From: Promethearchaeota archaeon
GTDB lineage: Archaea; Asgardarchaeota; Lokiarchaeia; Sigyniarchaeales; SOKP01
DNA: 64,000 nucleotides
Reading direction: 5' to 3'
Assembly: GCA_048940925.1 (NCBI GenBank)
Contig: JBHLOC010000006.1
Coordinates: 32,001-96,000 of the forward strand
The stretch's first letter is position 1; each line of letters starts with the position of its first letter. The position numbers were made by a program, and so were the translations under genes. The notes under the pieces are model-generated. The model was not told the origin of the DNA, ran no database searches, and saw nothing but the letters and a program-made list of their open reading frames with translations. Positions 26,965 to 36,818 of this stretch are shown piece after piece.

Positions 26965-27678
26965 TTGATGCTTCTTATGAGTTTTAAACCAGAATATTTT
27001 GGGCTTAAAAGAGATTGTTTATATGAAATAATAGCGACAACTTATTCTATTACTGATAATGAAAAGGCTATTCACCCTAATGCTTCTTGTATGGGGATAA
27101 GATTGATTGATAATAACAATTTACAGATCATTCCTTTTTATACTACATCTACCTACAAAAATCTAAAAGCCAATAATATAATTGCTATTAATTTTATTGA
27201 CGATATATACTTATATGCTCTTGCTGCATTAAAAGATCCACATTCTTCTATAGGTTTAATTGAATTCCCCTCAAAATATTATTCATACAAATATTTTGAT
27301 TTTCTCGTGAGTGATATACCATACATAAAGAAAGCATGGGGTTTATTATTGGGTAGAGTCCTACAAGAATTCCAAAAAACTAAAAAAGATGAATTAGGAG
27401 ATATTAACGTGCCAGTGTTTAAGTTAGATGTTATTTTTAACAAAAAATTTCATGAGTCTTATAAATTATTCAATAGAGCAGAAAACTTAACCTTGGAAAC
27501 AATAATTTTAGCAACTCGCTTAAAAATTGCTAAGAAACAAAAAAATCAATATCTGTTTTCTAAACTCTATGAAAAAATGAGAGATCATATAGAGAATATT
27601 GAAAGGTTTGGAAAAAATAAAAAAGTATTAAAAACTATTGAATTGGTAAGTAGTTATATGAAAAAATTGATGGAGTAA
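26965..27678 (+). CDS. DUF447 family protein
   Basis: YEIIATT, PNASCMG, TYKNL, FNRA...EtIIlATR; lies in the methanopterin cluster. Confidence 0.75.
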   Translation: MMLLMSFKPEYFGLKRDCLYEIIATTYSITDNEKAIHPNASCMGIRLIDNNNLQIIPFYTTSTYKNLKANNIIAINFIDDIYLYALAALKDPHSSIGLIEFPSKYYSYKYFDFLVSDIPYIKKAWGLLLGRVLQEFQKTKKDELGDINVPVFKLDVIFNKKFHESYKLFNRAENLTLETIILATRLKIAKKQKNQYLFSKLYEKMRDHIENIERFGKNKKVLKTIELVSSYMKKLME

Positions 27679-28071
27679 TTATTTTTCTTTAATTTTTTCG
27701 ATAAACATTAATGGATATTCTAATTCATCAATCCATTCGACTTTTGCTACCAAAAAAATAGATTCATACTCAACAATTAATTCTGCTTTGATCATATTCC
27801 TTGTAATCTCATCATAATCAAATTCAGTCCTCTTTGTTCCTGATATTTTTTCCCGATTTAATTGAATTTCTACGGATTTTACATAGGGCTGACATGAAAT
27901 AGCCGATTCTATGCCTCTTTCTATGGCACTTATAATTTTTTCGTCATTCTTAATAGGAATTCCGCTAAGAATGTGATATAATGCACCTAGTTTAATACCT
28001 GTTTCAAAACAAGCTCTTTCTCTCTTACTGAGATCAGGTGAAAAATAAATTCTCGTATTATTTATAGGCAT
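27679..28071 (-). CDS. mptD: Archaeal dihydroneopterin aldolase
   Basis: RERACFETGIKLGALYH, QPYV, ELEYPLM. Confidence 0.88.
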   Translation of the reverse strand: MPINNTRIYFSPDLSKRERACFETGIKLGALYHILSGIPIKNDEKIISAIERGIESAISCQPYVKSVEIQLNREKISGTKRTEFDYDEITRNMIKAELIVEYESIFLVAKVEWIDELEYPLMFIEKIKEK

Positions 28072-28077
28072 TTAAAT

Positions 28078-29088
28078 TCAATCTAAATAATCTATTTTAG
28101 CTCCTATATTATTAGGTTTACAAATATAAATATGACCTCCTCCATTTTTTTGATTCTTTTGAACACTCTTTAATAAATCTACTGCTTCTGATTCAGATTC
28201 AACAATTCCAAAAACACTAGGACCAAAAGATGACATTCCATATGCCTTTAGTCCGTATTCTTCAAAGAATAATAATAAGTCTTTTACTATCTGGTGTTGT
28301 AAACTAATCTCAATGCTTTTAAAGCCAATAGATTGAATTCGTTTTAAACCTTCCCCAAAACCATTTAAATCATTTTTAATTAATGAAGGAATAATTTTCA
28401 TAATAATTTGATGAGATACTTCATTTACTTCATTTTTTGGAATTGGGGAATAATTTTGAAACACCCTAACTTCTTCATCACCATAGGCTCCTTTCTTTAT
28501 ACTAGGAATTACTAGTACAAATCTCCAATTCTCAGGGATATCATGTCTGAAAATCGTCAATGCTGGATCGGCTAATTTTGATGCTGATGAAGGTAAATAT
28601 GTTTCTTTTTCTTTACCTTTTCCAAAATCATGTCCACCATCTAAAATGAAACCTCCAGTTTCAAAACCCCTCCAACCTATTCCAGAGGTACCACCCCTTT
28701 CTACTAGTTTAGTTAATTGGTTAGTAGATAAATTAGTAATATTCTTCAATTTCGTTATAGCAGTGGCAATAGCTAAAGATAATTGAGTTTTTGAACCTAA
28801 ACCGACATGTGAAGGAAAATATCTTTTAAGATTGAAATGAAAGTTTTTATTACTAATATTAAAAGTTTTAAATACCTTGGAAGCTATTTCATTTATAACT
28901 TCAATTGATTCTCGATAATATTTATGAGCCTCGATCTTAAATTCTTTAGCATTATTAGAGGCTTCAAATATAACATTAGGACGGTCTAACATAAGACCAA
29001 TACCGCCATCAACTCTTCCAGTATATCCATTCTCGTCTATTAGTGAAAGGTGAATCCTACAAGGAGTTGTTATTCTTAAAGAAGTCAT
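28078..29088 (-). CDS. mptG: Beta-ribofuranosylaminobenzene 5'-phosphate synthase (GHMP family)
   Basis: TPCRIHLSLID, GRVDGGIG, HVGLGSKTQ, RGGTSGIG, GGFILDGGH, GMSSFGP. Confidence 0.9.
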   Translation of the reverse strand: MTSLRITTPCRIHLSLIDENGYTGRVDGGIGLMLDRPNVIFEASNNAKEFKIEAHKYYRESIEVINEIASKVFKTFNISNKNFHFNLKRYFPSHVGLGSKTQLSLAIATAITKLKNITNLSTNQLTKLVERGGTSGIGWRGFETGGFILDGGHDFGKGKEKETYLPSSASKLADPALTIFRHDIPENWRFVLVIPSIKKGAYGDEEVRVFQNYSPIPKNEVNEVSHQIIMKIIPSLIKNDLNGFGEGLKRIQSIGFKSIEISLQHQIVKDLLLFFEEYGLKAYGMSSFGPSVFGIVESESEAVDLLKSVQKNQKNGGGHIYICKPNNIGAKIDYLD

Positions 29089-29193: not shown

Positions 29194-29553
29194 TTGAGCG
29201 ATATGAGTTATTTAGAAGGATTAACAAGAAATTTAATAAAGAAGGGTTATTCTAAAAAGCAAATTCTTGAAAGATTAGTACAAGAATATAAAGATTTTAA
29301 AACTATAAATCAAACCTCTGCATTTAAGTTGGCTAAAGGGATATTAAAGGAATGTCAAAGAATTGATATAAATGTGATACATGATCTTTTCATTAAGATT
29401 TTATTAGATGTAAATAAAGCTAATGTATCAGTTGGGAAATAATGTGTAGGGTGTAGAGGTGAAGGAGATTTCTTTGTACATAAATTATTAGCTGAATTAT
29501 CAGAGACTAAAACTAATAATTTTCTCCAACTATCACTTTTCAATTATTTTTGA
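29194..29553 (+). pseudogene. Truncated paralog of the AIR-synthase-like gene at 33623
   Basis: LEGLTR...LLDVNKANVSVGK*CVGCRGEGDFFVHKL vs LLDINKANVTIGKQGVGCRGSGDFFVHKL; CAA to TAA at 29440-29442; similarity ends near 29526. Confidence 0.85.
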
Positions 29554-29608
29554 CTTTTTGACTGCCCTGGCACTCATGACGCTTTATCTTGCAGTTAACT
29601 GATTTAGC

Positions 29609-29878
29609 TTGATAATAAACGATTTAGTTATTCTAAATTATAAGAATTCTTATAAAGATTTCTCAAATAAACTGCAGGAAAGTGAGGTTAAATTGCTCAT
29701 ATTTGAGAACTATAAGACTAAAGATATTATTCCAAAACACCATGGCAGAGATATGAACAATAAAGATGGTAATTTAGATTGTTGGAATAATATTTTAAGT
29801 AGTGAAGAAATGGAAACTTTTGATGAGGAATTATTACTTCACGGTCCCTATTGTCAAGCAGAATTAGAATTAAAGTAA
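29609..29878 (+). CDS. Hypothetical protein or gene fragment
   Basis: 89-aa ORF with TTG start and no recognisable motif. Confidence 0.3.
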   Translation: MIINDLVILNYKNSYKDFSNKLQESEVKLLIFENYKTKDIIPKHHGRDMNNKDGNLDCWNNILSSEEMETFDEELLLHGPYCQAELELK

Positions 29879-30009
29879 AAATATCTCAAAATAACATTAC
29901 ATTTATGGTGAATTATGATTATATTGAAAAAAAGGTGAATAATTTTAAATTTAAATATGTTCAATATTAAATGAGAAAAAAATAAATTTACTTTCAAAGA
30001 TGAATTGAA

Positions 30010-30462
30010 ATGGGTATTATTAAAGAAAGATCTTGGTTTATCCTATTAGGATCTGGAATTCTAACTATCGTAGCAATGTTCATACCTTCAATCCAACTTC
30101 TAACAAATTATGAATTTTATTCGTGGGTATGCGGATTATATTATAGTACAGAGACAGGACTCGGTTTCGGTGGCATAGGATTTATAACCATTTTAGTTCC
30201 ATTAAGTGCAGTATTATTATTACTCGCAGGATTAAAAAATAAAAAGACAAATACTCACAATTTAGATATCTTGGGATTGATTGGAGGAGTAACTCTTATA
30301 TTTGTAGCGATCTGGCGTTTTATTGCCGTTATCAGTTATAGGATAACAGTTATCGATATCCCGATATATGTTATTCTTATTGCGGGAGTACTAGGAATGT
30401 TAGTAGGATTAATAGGTTTTAAGGAAAAATCCTTTAAGGTGGAAGTGCTACAATCGGATTAA
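30010..30462 (+). CDS. Four-TM hypothetical membrane protein
   Basis: Four hydrophobic segments, ATG start, T-tract after stop. Confidence 0.7.
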   Translation: MGIIKERSWFILLGSGILTIVAMFIPSIQLLTNYEFYSWVCGLYYSTETGLGFGGIGFITILVPLSAVLLLLAGLKNKKTNTHNLDILGLIGGVTLIFVAIWRFIAVISYRITVIDIPIYVILIAGVLGMLVGLIGFKEKSFKVEVLQSD

Positions 30463-30867
30463 TTTTTTTCTTGTAGGGTATTAAGACCATCATAGTAATC
30501 TATCTAATATCTTTTTTTCTTTTTCTTATCATACTCAAACTAAGACTAGTTTGAATTGGAAAATAAGGCTATAAACACCCACCATCTCCCAGAAAGCCTT
30601 TTCTCCCTTATAAAATTAAAAAAAATCACTATGATTGAATCATTTCCTGAAAAATAGCTTGGATATCATCTTATGTTTATTCAACTTAAGTTCATTGTCA
30701 AGATTATCAGATCCATAAAAAAAGGGGTCACTAATCTTAATTATGAATGAGTGTGACCTGCATAGCATTGGAACTTCAAAATATTTTAAGTAGTGTAAAT
30801 TTAGAAACGCGCAATGAAGAACTACTTTATTATTGCCCAAAATAATTTTTTCGATGATTATTAGATG

Positions 30868-31704
30868 TTATTCTTCTCTAAAGTTTGGAATATCCTTTTG
30901 ATAGAATATTTGAGCAATCCAATCCCTATAATGGATAAATTTTCCAGTTCCTTTGAAGTTTACTAATGGTTGATGCATTCTGTCAAATTTAACATAATTA
31001 GAAAAGACAGGGGTAAGGTTATTACAGTCTTCACAAAAGGGTATAATTACTGATTCTACTCCTTTTATTATAGTTTCCGACTGTCCTGGTGCTGTAGCAC
31101 CGTCTGATTCTGTAAACCTATGGCTAAATTTGGTTGCTAATAAATTTTTTCTTGAACCGCATCTTAAACACTTTAATAATTTCATTTTTTCAATTGAGTC
31201 ATAATCAATACGTAAAAAGAAATCTGATGCTTTTCTAATTGCTCTAATTAATCGTTCATATTCACTCCTTAATTCATTATTCTGAGAATCAAGATTAATC
31301 GCCTCTCCATAATATTTTAACGCTTTTTCCATTTCTCCTCTTTTTATACATAAAATTCCTACTTCCTGAAGTGCATCTGGTGCATTAGGATTATATCTTA
31401 ACCCTTTTTCAATATTTTTAATTGCTTTATTGACTTTTCCTTGTTCAGCATTATTCATCCCTATGATATAATATTTTTCAAATTTTTCCATGTTAACTTT
31501 TTTCCGTATTTTCTTTGAATAAATTTTAAAATAATAATATACCAATGAAGGCACAAGGATAATTGAAATAATAACTATCCAAGCTATTGCGGGACCTAAA
31601 TTGTTCCATATAACCCAAATTATCCCCAATATAACAGTAAAAATCACAATTCCCCCACAGGTAATTAAGCTTTGCTCTAAAGGTGTACGGTATTTCTTTG
31701 GCAT
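30868..31704 (-). CDS. Membrane-anchored TPR protein with C-terminal Zn-binding domain
   Basis: Two N-terminal TM; TPR-like AIKNIEKGLRYNPNAPDALQEVG...ALKYYGEAINLDS; CLRC...CEDC; GAGGT SD. Confidence 0.75.
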   Translation of the reverse strand: MPKKYRTPLEQSLITCGGIVIFTVILGIIWVIWNNLGPAIAWIVIISIILVPSLVYYYFKIYSKKIRKKVNMEKFEKYYIIGMNNAEQGKVNKAIKNIEKGLRYNPNAPDALQEVGILCIKRGEMEKALKYYGEAINLDSQNNELRSEYERLIRAIRKASDFFLRIDYDSIEKMKLLKCLRCGSRKNLLATKFSHRFTESDGATAPGQSETIIKGVESVIIPFCEDCNNLTPVFSNYVKFDRMHQPLVNFKGTGKFIHYRDWIAQIFYQKDIPNFREE

Positions 31705-31871
31705 TTCTTAATTTATTACCTCTAAAATTATTGTCTACTATATTAAATTCTGTTTTTAAATATTAAAATATTATTAAAATAATGAGCCTTTTATATTTCC
31801 CTTAACATTAAGAGAAATTAAGTTATAGTAAATTAAATAGATCTTATATTAGTAGCTTTGATTTTTGAGTT

Positions 31872-32768
31872 TTAAAGTTTATTTATTAATTTTTTACCAC
31901 ATTTTTCACATATATATAAGTTCTTATCTTGAATATGATTACATTTATTACAAACAGTTTCAGGATTTTGTGAAAATAAATCTCTTATCTTTAAAAAAAG
32001 TTGTTCTCTTTTTCTTGTAAAATCATTAAAAGTTTCATTTTTATCTTGCTTTGGTAAAAGGGAGAATTTAATTTTGCATATTTTATGTAAGGTAATTGTA
32101 CCCTCTTTTTCAATATAATCATAATTCATCATAAATGTAAGGTTATTATTCTGTATTATATTATATGGAACCGTTAAGGGTATAAAATGAAGATAGGAGC
32201 AATATGCATCCTTAAATCCAGATTTGTCGTAAAATTGTTTAATCGCAGAATGGAAGGCATCTTTTCTTTTAAAAATTCCATGTGCTAAACCATAGGCCAC
32301 TCCACTCATTAAAGCTCCTGCTACAGTACCATATGGAGACATTTCACTTAAGCCATGCGCTCCACGATAACTTTCTTTTCGCTTCCAAGTTACGATAAGT
32401 ATTCTAATATTAGTAATAAAAATATGACCATCAATGTGCATCTTAAGTTTTGGTAGGTTAAGAGTCCCAGGAAAATCAAGAATTATTTCCTCTTCTTTCT
32501 CTTTATGTATGAAGATTCTATTAACAACATTTTTTTCTATTTTCAAAATTTCTTTTCCTGGAAATTTCTTTAAAAGATTTGATATTAAGATAGGATAAAG
32601 TCCATACCAAAAATAATCTGGAGATTGACTTGAAGTAACTATATATAAAAGTTCACATTTTTTTATTGAATTAGAAGCATAGAAACGAGTGAATTCATCA
32701 ATAAATTCTTTTACCCATTTTTTTTTGATCCTTTTCCCAATCACATCATAGCTCATGATAAATTTCAC
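31872..32768 (-). CDS. Hypothetical protein with C-terminal zinc ribbon
   Basis: CNKC...CEKCGKKL; GHIFITNIRI suggests a PH/GRAM-like strand. Confidence 0.65.
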   Translation of the reverse strand: MKFIMSYDVIGKRIKKKWVKEFIDEFTRFYASNSIKKCELLYIVTSSQSPDYFWYGLYPILISNLLKKFPGKEILKIEKNVVNRIFIHKEKEEEIILDFPGTLNLPKLKMHIDGHIFITNIRILIVTWKRKESYRGAHGLSEMSPYGTVAGALMSGVAYGLAHGIFKRKDAFHSAIKQFYDKSGFKDAYCSYLHFIPLTVPYNIIQNNNLTFMMNYDYIEKEGTITLHKICKIKFSLLPKQDKNETFNDFTRKREQLFLKIRDLFSQNPETVCNKCNHIQDKNLYICEKCGKKLINKL

Positions 32769-32882
32769 ATTTGCTTTATTTTAAAATTAAGATAAGTAAA
32801 TTTTTATTAATTTCAATGATTTCTGCACTATTTGAATTAAATGATATTAATATTCTAATTTTAGATTTTTTCTTTATAGTAA

Positions 32883-33414
32883 TCAATTTTTAAATTTCTG
32901 AACACCTTTATTTAATATTATGGTTGATCCTATTAATAATCCCTCAAATTGTGGTACCGGATAATATTTTAATAATAAAAATTTATCATTATATTCACCT
33001 TCAACATAAAAGTTTTCAGAAGGTGCCACTGCTATACCTAAACCAGTATCATATTGTTAACTACCATAAGTTTCTAACCATTTAAGAATTCCTTGATTAT
33101 TATAAACCAATGTTAAAATATCAATAGATCCTGTATTAGCTGAATAATCTATTCCTGTAATATATATATTTCCCGAGAATCCAAATCAATTCCTCGTCCC
33201 CATTCAGAATCCCCATCTCCATATTGTTTTTCCCATCGAGTCCTGTTATTAGTAGGCATTTATGAATTAAACTTATTCCTGTTCTTGCATTACCTAAAAG
33301 AAAAAGTTTTCTTTTACTAAATTTTCTTTTATACTTTTCAAGTGTAAATTTACCTTGTTCTGTCATTAAATCTCCCTCTCTATAGAATTCTTTCTGTTGT
33401 AATCTATTAATCAT
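32883..33414 (-). pseudogene. Decayed beta-propeller (SBBP-like repeat) gene
   Basis: Across frameshifts and a stop: RGIDLDS / GNIYITGIDYSANTGSIDILTLVYNNQGILKWLETYGS*QYDTGLGIAVAPSENFYVEG...FLLLKY. Confidence 0.65.
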
Positions 33415-33622
33415 TTGTTATAAGTATAATGACTTCAGCTATCTAGATAATTATAAAAAATTTAATTTAGAATTGTTTATCCTTTTTAATATTAAGAAGT
33501 TCTTGAAATAAGATAGACTTCTTTTTGATAAAAAAATTATATTTCATTAAGCAAGATAACTTATAATCTCTTGATTCATTATTAATTAAAAAAAACAGAA
33601 TTTACAATTAAGGGTTTTACTT

Positions 33623-35032
33623 TTGAGCGATTTAGAAGGATTAACTAGGAGGTTAATGGAAAAAGGTTCTACAAAGGATGAAATTATTGTACGGCTTGTT
33701 AATGAATATATGGATTTTAAAGACATTGATAAGGAGTCTGCAATCTCACTTTCTGAAGCAATTTATGAAGAATGTCGGAATAGCGACATAAAATTAGTGA
33801 GTGATCCCTTTATGAGATATTTATTAGATATTAATAAGGCAAATGTGACCATTGGAAAACAAGGAGTGGGTTGTAGGGGATCTGGTGATTTTTTCGTTCA
33901 TAAGCTCATTGCAAAATTATCTGAAACCGAGAAAAGGGCATATTTATCGCCAAGCTCCTTAGATGATGCTGGTGCTGTGAGAATAAGTGATATTGAAGGA
34001 TTTAAAGCTGAAGATGAATTAATCATTGTATCCAAAATGGAAGGAATTCATAGTCGCCTAAGTGACTTTCCATTCTTGTGTGGTTTTCACGTAAATTCGC
34101 GTAATAAGTTTGCGTGAAGCGTATCGAGAGCCGCACTAAGAGATCTCTATGTTAAAGGTGCAAAGCCTATTTCAATTATGATTGATACGCATCTAGGAGA
34201 TGATGCAGATGTAGGGAAACTTTTTGATTTTATGGCAGGTGTTTCTGCAATTTCAGAACTAGCGAAAGTTCCAATTACAGCAGGTTCAACACTTCGAATT
34301 GGAGGAGATATGGTTATTGGAAACCGCTTAGTTGGAGGAATTAGTGCTGTTGGAATATGTTCTCGAGTTTTAGCAAGGAAGAATATTAAAGTTGGCGATA
34401 AAATTTTAATGACAGAGGGATCGGGTGGAGGGACAATAACGACAACAGCAATATATTCAGGTAATCATCATATAGTAAAGGAGACTATGAATATCAAATT
34501 TCTTGAAGCTTGTGAAATTATCTTAAATTCTGAATATCTTAATGAGATTCGTGCTATGTGCGATGTTACAAATGGTGGTCTTAGAGGAGATTTATATGAA
34601 ATTAATTATGAAGCTAATTGTGGTGTTAATATTTTTGAAGAAAAAGTAAGAGCACTTGTAAATCCAAATGTTCTAAATATGCTAGAAAAGGTTGGAGTTG
34701 ATTATCTAGGAGTTTCTTTGGATGCATTATTAATATATTGTTCTGACTCTATATCTCAAGAAATTATAAATGATTTAAGAAGAAATAATATTAAGTGTGA
34801 TGAAATAGGTTCTGTAGATGATTCAAATCAAGTTTATATTAGTTATCAAGGTAAGGAAAAAAAACAAATCCTTCCAAAATTCAGAGAATCTGCATATACT
34901 AAGATAAAACAAGAGATTGGAGAGAAAACCCCCAAGTCTCTTGAAGTAATGGAAAAAAGTGTTGAGAAAGCAGCTATGGAAGCGTTAGAGAAGCGTAATA
35001 AGATAATAGAATATATTTTGAAGCAAGAATAA
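33623..35032 (+). CDS. AIR-synthase-related protein (PurM/HypE/SelD/ThiL superfamily), two exons: 33623-34094 + 34125-35032, 459 aa spliced
   Basis: ORFs 33623-34117 and 34178-35032 share a frame; GVGCRGSGDF, DDAG, EGIHSRLSDFPFLCGFHV^TRAALRD, GSTLRIGGDMV, GSGGGTI, DVTNGG. Confidence 0.85.
34095..34124 (+). other. Putative bulge-helix-bulge (archaeal-type) intron in mRNA, 30 nt, containing the in-frame TGA
   Basis: 11-bp outer helix 34078-34088/34126-34136, 4-bp central helix ACGU/GCGU, 3-nt bulges AAA and AUC, 9-bp inner helix 34096-34104/34110-34118. Confidence 0.85.
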
Positions 35033-35129: not shown

Positions 35130-35930
35130 ATGAATGAAACCAAATATTTTCTTTATAATCTTAATAATGTGGGAATTCAATGGTATTTAAGCAGTAATAA
35201 GAATATAGATGACAAAGCTTATTCTCCTCACTTACAACTTAGATGCTCAAATTATGTAGATCCTTGGGAGGATAAATCTTCTCATTACCACTCAAAATCA
35301 CAAGAAATCTTCATTTTGTTAGATGGAGAATTATGGATGATGCTTGATGGTGAACCATATACTATACTTAGAAATAATCTTTTACTTGTTCAACCGGGAG
35401 TTCCTCATATGATTATTGGGGGAAGAACAAAAATTCGACATTTTGTACTTAAAGTTCCACATCAAGAAGATAAATGGATTCAGCACAATGAAAATATTAA
35501 TTATGATACTATAAAAGTTAAAATGGCAGAGAATCATTATAAAAGCGATATTGATGGATTAAAAGGTTTTTTTGCAGATTTAAATGATAAAAAATTTCAG
35601 AATAATTGGTTACTTGGATATGGAGAAGCAATTTATAAAACTAAACACCTCTGTTTAGCTTATATGGATTTGAAGTGTGAACAAGTTTATAACGAAATGA
35701 ATCATATTGAAACCTATCATTTTCATGAAGAGTCTACAGAATGGTATTTTACGATAAAAGGACAACAGAAATTTTTAATAGATAATAAAGAGATATCTGT
35801 TGATCCAGGGTATCTATTAAGAATGCCTGAAAAAACACCTCATTTATTATTATCCTATTCATACCCATTTGAAGGGATTACCTTAAGAACACCAGCAATA
35901 CCTAACGATAAGATAATATTAAATAAATAA
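35130..35930 (+). CDS. Bicupin protein
   Basis: HYHSKSQEIF...PGVPH and HFHEESTEWY...EKTPH. Confidence 0.85.
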   Translation: MNETKYFLYNLNNVGIQWYLSSNKNIDDKAYSPHLQLRCSNYVDPWEDKSSHYHSKSQEIFILLDGELWMMLDGEPYTILRNNLLLVQPGVPHMIIGGRTKIRHFVLKVPHQEDKWIQHNENINYDTIKVKMAENHYKSDIDGLKGFFADLNDKKFQNNWLLGYGEAIYKTKHLCLAYMDLKCEQVYNEMNHIETYHFHEESTEWYFTIKGQQKFLIDNKEISVDPGYLLRMPEKTPHLLLSYSYPFEGITLRTPAIPNDKIILNK

Positions 35931-35984: not shown

Positions 35985-36818
35985 TTATTTTTTATTGTTT
36001 AAATCCAAAACTTCATTCATAGAACCTGATCTGAATCCCTCAACATCGATTGTTATATATGTAAATCCAATTTCTTTCAGTTGGTTTTTTATTAATTTTA
36101 AATTTTCTACATTTAGAATTTTAGGTAAATCTTCAGGCATAAATTCGATACGAGCAAGAGTTTCTTCATGTAATCTTACTCTTAACTGATCCAAATCAAA
36201 TTTACTTTTAAGAAATTTTTCAGATTCCCTAATCATATATAATTTCTTTTCATTAATAATTTGACCATAGGGAATCCGAGATGAAAAGCAAGCCATTGAC
36301 GGTTTTGATTGAACATCTAAATCAAAATATTTGCTAATTTCTCTTATTTCTTTCTTATTAAGATTGCAATCGATAAAAGGAGTAGAGATATTTAATTCTT
36401 TTAAAGCTTGCATACCAGGTCTGTAATCCGAAAGATCATCAATATTAGAGCCATCTAAAATTGTATCAAAATTTTTTAACTTCTTAATTTGAAGAATCTC
36501 ATCATATAAACCAGTTTTACAAATATAACATCGATTTTGAGGGTTACACCTAAAATCCTCATTTCTTAAAGGATCCCTATCAATTATCATATGAGGGATG
36601 TTATAAATTTCAGCGAATTGATGTGCTTCTTCAATTTCTTCTTCAGGATAAAGGTTTGAACGCTCAGTCACTAGTAACGTCTCTTTAGCATACTTTTTTG
36701 AAAGGAAAGCTAATAGAGAGCTGTCTACACCTCCTGAGAAGGCAACTATTACTTTTTTGCTGTCTAAAAAAGAAATTAAACTTGCTAACTTTTTTTCAAG
36801 AATATCAGATAAATCCAT
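35985..36818 (-). CDS. larE: LarE-like ATP-dependent sulfur transferase (PP-loop)
   Basis: AFSGGVDSS, RCYICK, DGSN.DD..DYRPG, KPSMACFSSRIPYG, GFRSGSMN. Confidence 0.88.
   Translation of the reverse strand: MDLSDILEKKLASLISFLDSKKVIVAFSGGVDSSLLAFLSKKYAKETLLVTERSNLYPEEEIEEAHQFAEIYNIPHMIIDRDPLRNEDFRCNPQNRCYICKTGLYDEILQIKKLKNFDTILDGSNIDDLSDYRPGMQALKELNISTPFIDCNLNKKEIREISKYFDLDVQSKPSMACFSSRIPYGQIINEKKLYMIRESEKFLKSKFDLDQLRVRLHEETLARIEFMPEDLPKILNVENLKLIKNQLKEIGFTYITIDVEGFRSGSMNEVLDLNNKK

Follow-up and report, generated by a model that had tools for sequence, protein, structure and literature searches.

How a gene interrupted by an in-frame stop codon could still yield one enzyme is the question raised by a locus of a Promethearchaeota archaeon of the class Lokiarchaeia (GenBank assembly GCA_048940925.1; 4.8 Mb, 29.6% GC). 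The gene belongs to the PurM/AIR-synthase superfamily and lies in a stretch of 64,000 nucleotides, hereafter called the window (contig JBHLOC010000006.1, positions 32,001–96,000; G000:C30:32001-96000 in our labels). In an earlier note, an insert of 30 nt containing the stop codon had been read as a bulge-helix-bulge (BHB) element, the substrate of the archaeal tRNA splicing endonuclease EndA, which cleaves after the second base of each bulge. Based on the analyses below, we consider it very probable that the insert is a tRNA-type BHB intron in a protein-coding mRNA, cut out by EndA and closed by the ligase RtcB.

The geometry claimed for the insert was recovered element by element, together with the TGA: a central helix of 4 bp, two 3-nt bulges on opposite strands, and helices on either side, which are the features that define a BHB (Table 1). 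This strict BHB was also the minimum-free-energy fold (z = −6.59; 0 of 200 shuffles reached it), and the pair probability was ≥ 0.90 for 24 of the 24 pairs, 321-nt context included. With a free energy of −27.6 kcal/mol, it was the most stable BHB among the frame-restoring candidates of the whole 4.8-Mb genome; the next candidate reached −11.6 and the best control with mirror geometry −5.9. Excision of 34095-34124 left an open frame of 459 aa from TTG 33623, a start site that agrees with the start of homologs, created the junction codon ACG (Thr) and restored the motif FHVTRA, which reproduced the claimed product. There was no group I or group II self-splicing core in the 30-nt insert and no Rfam match at the site, and a search of the genome for the source of the intron gave no match of > 15 nt to the insert elsewhere. 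When the spliced junction (34078-34094 joined to 34125-34136) was folded, it formed an 11-bp stem with a 7-nt loop, resembling an anticodon arm.

In the proposed pathway, the transcript would fold into the strict BHB, as computed, a heteromeric EndA would cut after the second bulge base on both sides, and RtcB with archease would join the exons, the last two steps following the established archaeal pathway. The joined mRNA would encode a 459-aa ATP-dependent enzyme of the PurM fold with the helix leading to the conserved Asp intact, and the unspliced mRNA would end at the TGA and give a fragment of 164 aa. The junction falls in the middle of this helix (helix 154–171 in the structure model of an intronless homolog), and the invariant Asp six residues beyond it is aligned to an Asp conserved in HypE and SelD, which we take to be the binder of metal and ATP in this fold.

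The insert was compared among 80 orthologous loci collected by protein search. It was present at the same base in 16 loci (11 of 30 nt and five of 29 nt), and the remaining 64 were intronless. Among the sampled relatives, it occurred in nine of 45 same-genus matches and in one other genus of the same family. None of 26 matches outside the family had a stop or a frameshift, and the three that were checked directly were intronless. Among the genomes searched, the intron occurs in a single Lokiarchaeia family. An assembly artefact, a possibility raised in the earlier note, is excluded by the recurrence of the insert at an identical position in dozens of independent assemblies. When metagenome matches were added, 55 distinct alleles were obtained, 43 of 30 nt, 11 of 29 nt and one of 28 nt. 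The TGA was kept in all 43 alleles of 30 nt, the frame was shifted by the 12 shorter ones, and canonical cutting gave an ACG junction in 55 of 55.

Intronless homologs had been expected to read FHVTRA, and Thr was found at this position in 105 of the 120 top matches (Ala in 12, Ser in one) and in 59 of 65 intronless genes, the motif FHV-T/A-R being conserved as far as methanogens, Archaeoglobi and Bathyarchaeia. No homolog was found in which sense codons specify the ten additional residues. A stop-free insert allele should have topped the protein search, and the only candidates there (P0001, P0042 and P0158) were rejected because they were gene calls in which TGA is read as Trp. These data bear on the possibility that UGA is recoded, by selenocysteine or readthrough, into a protein with ten additional residues. 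Such a reading would suit a 30-nt insert that is in frame and carries a single TGA within its hairpin, and the genome does encode a tRNA-Sec (G000 C3:50049-50141). However, neither readthrough nor selenocysteine can explain the alleles, because the 12 alleles of 28–29 nt shift the frame; two 30-nt alleles contain an extra in-frame TGA or TAA; and the insert residues are unconserved and would split the active-site helix. Recoding is therefore refuted for the frameshifting alleles and has next to no probability overall. In separate searches, the joined junction was sought in JGI metagenome contigs and a protein from a spliced transcript was sought in databases; neither was found, which counts neither for nor against splicing. 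Another database entry, P0162, was set aside because it is a genomic intronless allele.

The RNA shape itself appears in the variation of the alleles. Across the 43 alleles of 30 nt, 97.1% of the pair cells were paired, and slid controls reached ≤ 59%. Double changes occupied 21 cells, compared with 8.2 in shuffles (0 of 500), with five pairs involved, and the covariation measures were above all 500 shuffles. In allele L124, a compensatory change from C-G to U-A in the central helix involves one exonic and one intronic base. For comparisons of intron-bearing and intronless genes, we used 23 intron and 65 intronless alleles, a set that was not retrieved by a DNA pattern. The outer helix, formed between the exons, had 9–10 of 10 pairs in 23 of 23 intron alleles, in contrast to 2–9 in the 65 intronless alleles. 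Synonymous positions were locked correspondingly: His was encoded by CAC in 22 of 23 intron versus 13 of 65 intronless alleles, and Gly by GGA in none of 23 versus 37 of 65. Relatives with an insert at the same site and covarying BHB pairs, as the earlier note had anticipated, were therefore present, and these comparative tests, together with the FHVTRA homologs, support tRNA-type splicing as the route to the 459-aa enzyme.

The same alleles were considered with respect to programmed ribosomal bypass, in which the ribosome would leave the Val codon GTA ahead of the insert, resume at a matching GTA near its end and produce H-V-S-R-A with no splicing. The matched GTA pair does flank the hairpin in the window, and the intronless allele L035 has TCG (Ser) at the site. 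However, the pair is broken in six alleles, the landing triplet being GGA in four and ATA in one and the take-off codon being GTT in L002. Unlike bypass of the T4 gene 60 type, there is no stop directly after the take-off codon but one eight codons downstream. Moreover, Thr predominates at the site in intronless genes, and bypass would leave the exon–exon helix and the two exact 3-nt bulges unexplained. We consider this mechanism very improbable. As for L035, its flanks are of the intron type, and it could have arisen by loss of the DNA between the CGTA repeats that bound the intron.

Selection on the exons was then used to judge whether the interrupted genes are functional. The median dN/dS was 0.13 for exon 1 and 0.10 for exon 2, with a median dS of 1.4–1.6 among intron alleles, and no other stop was found in any of the 23 intron-bearing genes. 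Because no second lesion is seen at this degree of divergence and dN/dS is so low, the intron-bearing genes can be taken to make a protein. A dead gene, inactivated by insertion of the hairpin with decay still to come, would account for the stop or frameshift in every intron allele. However, the gene is the sole full-length copy in the 4.8-Mb genome, dN/dS is ∼0.1 as in intronless genes, no second lesion has accumulated in 23 genes near synonymous saturation, and a true pseudogene fragment nearby has decayed. This explanation is largely refuted, and we regard it as hardly credible. Purifying selection on both halves would also be compatible with two separate polypeptides, the hairpin being regulatory or neutral, and gene-calling pipelines do report the two pieces that the earlier note expected from them (164 aa, and ∼284 aa from ATG 34178). 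In that case, however, residues 158–175, with the invariant R, L, R, D and L, would be in neither product, although their codons are conserved in all intron alleles; two polypeptides are accordingly rated a very unlikely outcome. The T of the TGA is invariant in the 43 alleles although its pairing partner varies in 11 of them, which hints, suggestively only, that it may be selected as a fail-safe stop.

Several points weigh against intron splicing as interpreted here. The case is built from DNA comparison and computed folds. The motif is not always strict, the first central pair being an A-G mismatch in four alleles. Shared ancestry of the intron alleles inflates the covariation and locked-codon figures, and for ∼30 metagenome alleles the exon flanks were fixed by the pattern used for retrieval. 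The trees of the two exons, described below, were quick, with few columns and many open forks.

The genome encodes the machinery that such splicing would use. There are two EndA paralogs, one on contig C58 with the Tyr/His/Lys triad and one on C18 without Tyr and His, the positions of these presumed catalytic residues being those we assume from the Methanocaldococcus enzyme; the pair fits an α2β2 enzyme. RtcB adjoins archease on C40. The genome has 34 tRNA calls, many of them with predicted introns. The earlier note had proposed a scan for other split genes with BHBs, and seven further BHB-like inserts of 30–31 nt were found, the removal of which restores recognizable motifs (Table 1); the motifs of the EF-2 family, B12 mutase, Rab-like GTPase and E1-like genes are those we presume for these families. 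In genome scans by structure only, there was no overall excess over the mirror-geometry control (39 vs. 46, 11 vs. 8 and 185 vs. 166). A subset with A-first bulges and lengths of 30–31 nt gave 10 compared with one in the control, under a filter that was picked after the data had been seen. Because the loose structure scans were not enriched over controls, the seven inserts are a lower bound and not a census. The earlier note contained neither these inserts nor the lateral spread described below.

Table 1. Predicted intron, host gene and related features. Positions are those of the window unless a contig of the genome (G000) is named.
Feature	Position	Strand	Remarks
PurM/AIR-synthase-superfamily gene	33623-35032	+	two in-frame open reading frames (ORFs) split by TGA 34115-34117
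Exon 1 (predicted)	33623..34094	+	TTG start; codons 1-157 and first base of Thr codon
Exon 2 (predicted)	34125..35032	+	AIRS and AIRS_C domains; invariant Asp six residues past junction
30-nt BHB intron (predicted)	34095..34124	+	in-frame TGA 34115-34117
Outer helix (exon–exon), 11 bp	5' strand 34078-34088, 3' strand 34126-34136	+	
Central helix	34089-34092 / 34119-34122	+	
Two 3-nt bulges	34093-34095 and 34123-34125	+	
Inner hairpin	34096-34118	+	9-bp stem 34096-34104/34110-34118, 5-nt loop
Predicted cuts	34094/34095 and 34124/34125	+	position from established EndA rule
mptG-mptD, methanopterin genes	26965-29088		
Decayed 5' remnant, aa 1-111	29203-29535	+	internal TAA; ancestral place divergent from mptG; 55% identity
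∼4-kb segment between remnant and intact gene	29536..33622		TPR protein, unknown ORFs
Double-cupin gene between host gene and larE	35130-35930	+	seen in 2/80 related loci only
larE-like gene	35985-36818		
RNase HII insert	G000 C40:190863-190892	-	30 nt; stop confirmed by family search; single-copy gene
AMP phosphorylase insert	G000 C64:13177-13206	-	30 nt; stop confirmed by family search; single-copy gene
GH38 mannosidase insert	G000 C43:76068-76097	-	30 nt; stop confirmed by family search
EF-2 family gene insert	G000 C32:27895-27924	-	motif restored on removal
B12 mutase insert	G000 C71:54629-54659	+	motif restored on removal
Rab-like GTPase insert	G000 C78:59767-59796	-	motif restored on removal
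E1-like enzyme insert	G000 C87, near offset 55812	-	motif restored on removal

We also analyzed how the intron came to be distributed among these species. The whole-protein tree needed 11 intron changes. Trees were then made for each exon with 30 nt on each side of the junction omitted: the exon-1 tree needed eight changes (0 of 500 shuffles), with 13 intron alleles in one clade of 14 rows, and the exon-2 tree needed 19 (323 of 500 shuffles), i.e., the intron is distributed randomly on it. About nine alleles were clear chimeras, in which identity to other intron alleles is mostly 85–100% in exon 1, identity to an intronless lineage is 85–96% in exon 2, and the switch point mostly lies 10–40 codons beyond the intron. 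In the window, the decayed remnant has 84.7% DNA identity to L018, the allele that among intronless ones also matches exon 2 best, and the intact exon 1 matches intron alleles; the remnant is probably the displaced resident allele. Because the intron follows the exon-1 tree and not the exon-2 tree, and because of this displaced remnant, the intron appears to have passed laterally from species to species along with the gene's front half. Incoming DNA with the promoter, exon 1 and the intron would replace the resident 5' half, and the old half would sometimes be left behind. Homologous single-crossover integration would be the simplest route: the chimerism is observed, and the recombination route is the one we infer from it. 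Repeated precise loss through cDNA, our first reading of the patchy tree, was given up as the main explanation when the two exon trees proved discordant, although some losses may have occurred. We also rejected a fixed att site for site-specific integration: the breakpoints range from the intron edge (L015) to > 120 codons (L070), and neither an integrase nor shared cargo was found.

Remnants of the 5' half were found in four loci: the window, L213 (where the remnant extends seven codons beyond the site), L127 (where it stops at the site) and L198 (with two), the last three with unrelated cargo between remnant and gene in each. In the window, no integrase was detected in the segment 29536..33622, and what it has in common with other loci, mostly intron-bearing ones, is limited to its last ∼120–200 nt, the promoter region. 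Upstream of intron-bearing alleles, there seems to be a hot spot of gene turnover. Unrelated cargo lies there in L127 (860-2614, minus strand), L198 (743-4408), L214 and L216; it includes proteins of 584 aa, with repeated Cys-rich segments, and of 970 aa, besides other long ORFs. Overall, we think it likely that this Lokiarchaeia family routinely splices many mRNAs, including those of the single-copy RNase HII and AMP phosphorylase genes, with the tRNA machinery, via uniform BHB introns of 28–31 nt that are placed within conserved motifs and introduce a stop or a frameshift into the unspliced message, and that at least the intron of the PurM-fold gene also spreads between species by 5'-half replacements, with no encoded mobility protein.

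The closest known system is the BHB intron in the cbf5 pre-mRNA of Desulfurococcales and Sulfolobales (Watanabe 2002; Yoshinari 2006; Yokobori 2009, PMC2738675). Splicing of cbf5 was shown by cDNA, and introns in other protein genes were only predicted (Yokobori 2009). The two introns are alike in being short BHB introns within coding sequence at a conserved catalytic region, in the cut between the second and third bulge bases, in the heteromeric EndA and in their patchy presence among relatives. The PurM-fold insert has every defining feature of such introns that is open to computation, and it is predicted to work like the cbf5 intron. The two differ in that cbf5 is an RNA-modification gene, whereas the host here is a metabolic gene of an Asgard lineage; that the cbf5 BHB is mostly unconventional, whereas this one is strict; that this intron is one of at least eight such inserts in its genome and shows signs of having spread laterally along with its gene's 5' half; and that cbf5 has cDNA proof, whereas splicing here is predicted from DNA. 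A BHB intron in the 5' UTR of Haloferax HVO_1309, for which cbf5 was named as the only other mRNA case (Schwarz 2020, PMC7714728), is likewise an EndA substrate in an mRNA, but it lies outside the coding sequence and the protein is independent of splicing. In Asgard archaea, tRNA introns are abundant and repeatedly gained, and EndA was reported for 58 of 60 genomes, most often in the form of two paralogs (bioRxiv 10.64898/2026.10.13.758758); that study leaves mRNA untreated, the word "mRNA" being absent from its main text. The tRNA introns share the motif and the enzymes with the present intron and differ from it in the host RNA, which is an mRNA here. No report of BHB introns in Asgard mRNAs was found in the literature searched, most subscription papers lying outside the search, and within this searchable literature, coding-sequence BHB splicing has been shown for cbf5 alone.

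Introns in archaeal coding sequences are treated as almost absent, and the present one would be a conserved, selected case in the archaeal lineage closest to eukaryotes, in which mRNA splicing by EndA and RtcB becomes directly testable. It bears on the origin of RtcB-dependent mRNA splicing, of which XBP1 is the eukaryotic example, and of intron tolerance, and 5'-half replacements would give a very small, non-autonomous intron one route of spread. Metabolic reconstructions would also be affected, since Asgard genes with a split or pseudogene annotation may be intact.

Finally, we examined the host gene and its surroundings. A domain search placed the protein in the AIRS/AIRS_C (PurM) superfamily, and all NCBIfam matches were far under their curated cut-offs, so that the protein does not qualify as HypE, ThiL, SelD, PurL or PurM proper. 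The structure model of the intronless homolog matched HypE best (E = 6.6e-19), followed by ThiL, SelD and PurM. The protein may be a cofactor-biosynthesis ATPase. The gene's usual neighbours are mptG-mptD (methanopterin genes, with DUF447), in divergent orientation, and a larE-like gene, in convergent orientation; larE lies downstream in 77 of the 80 loci, and mptG, present in 39 of 80, is ∼115 nt from the gene start in most loci where it is visible.
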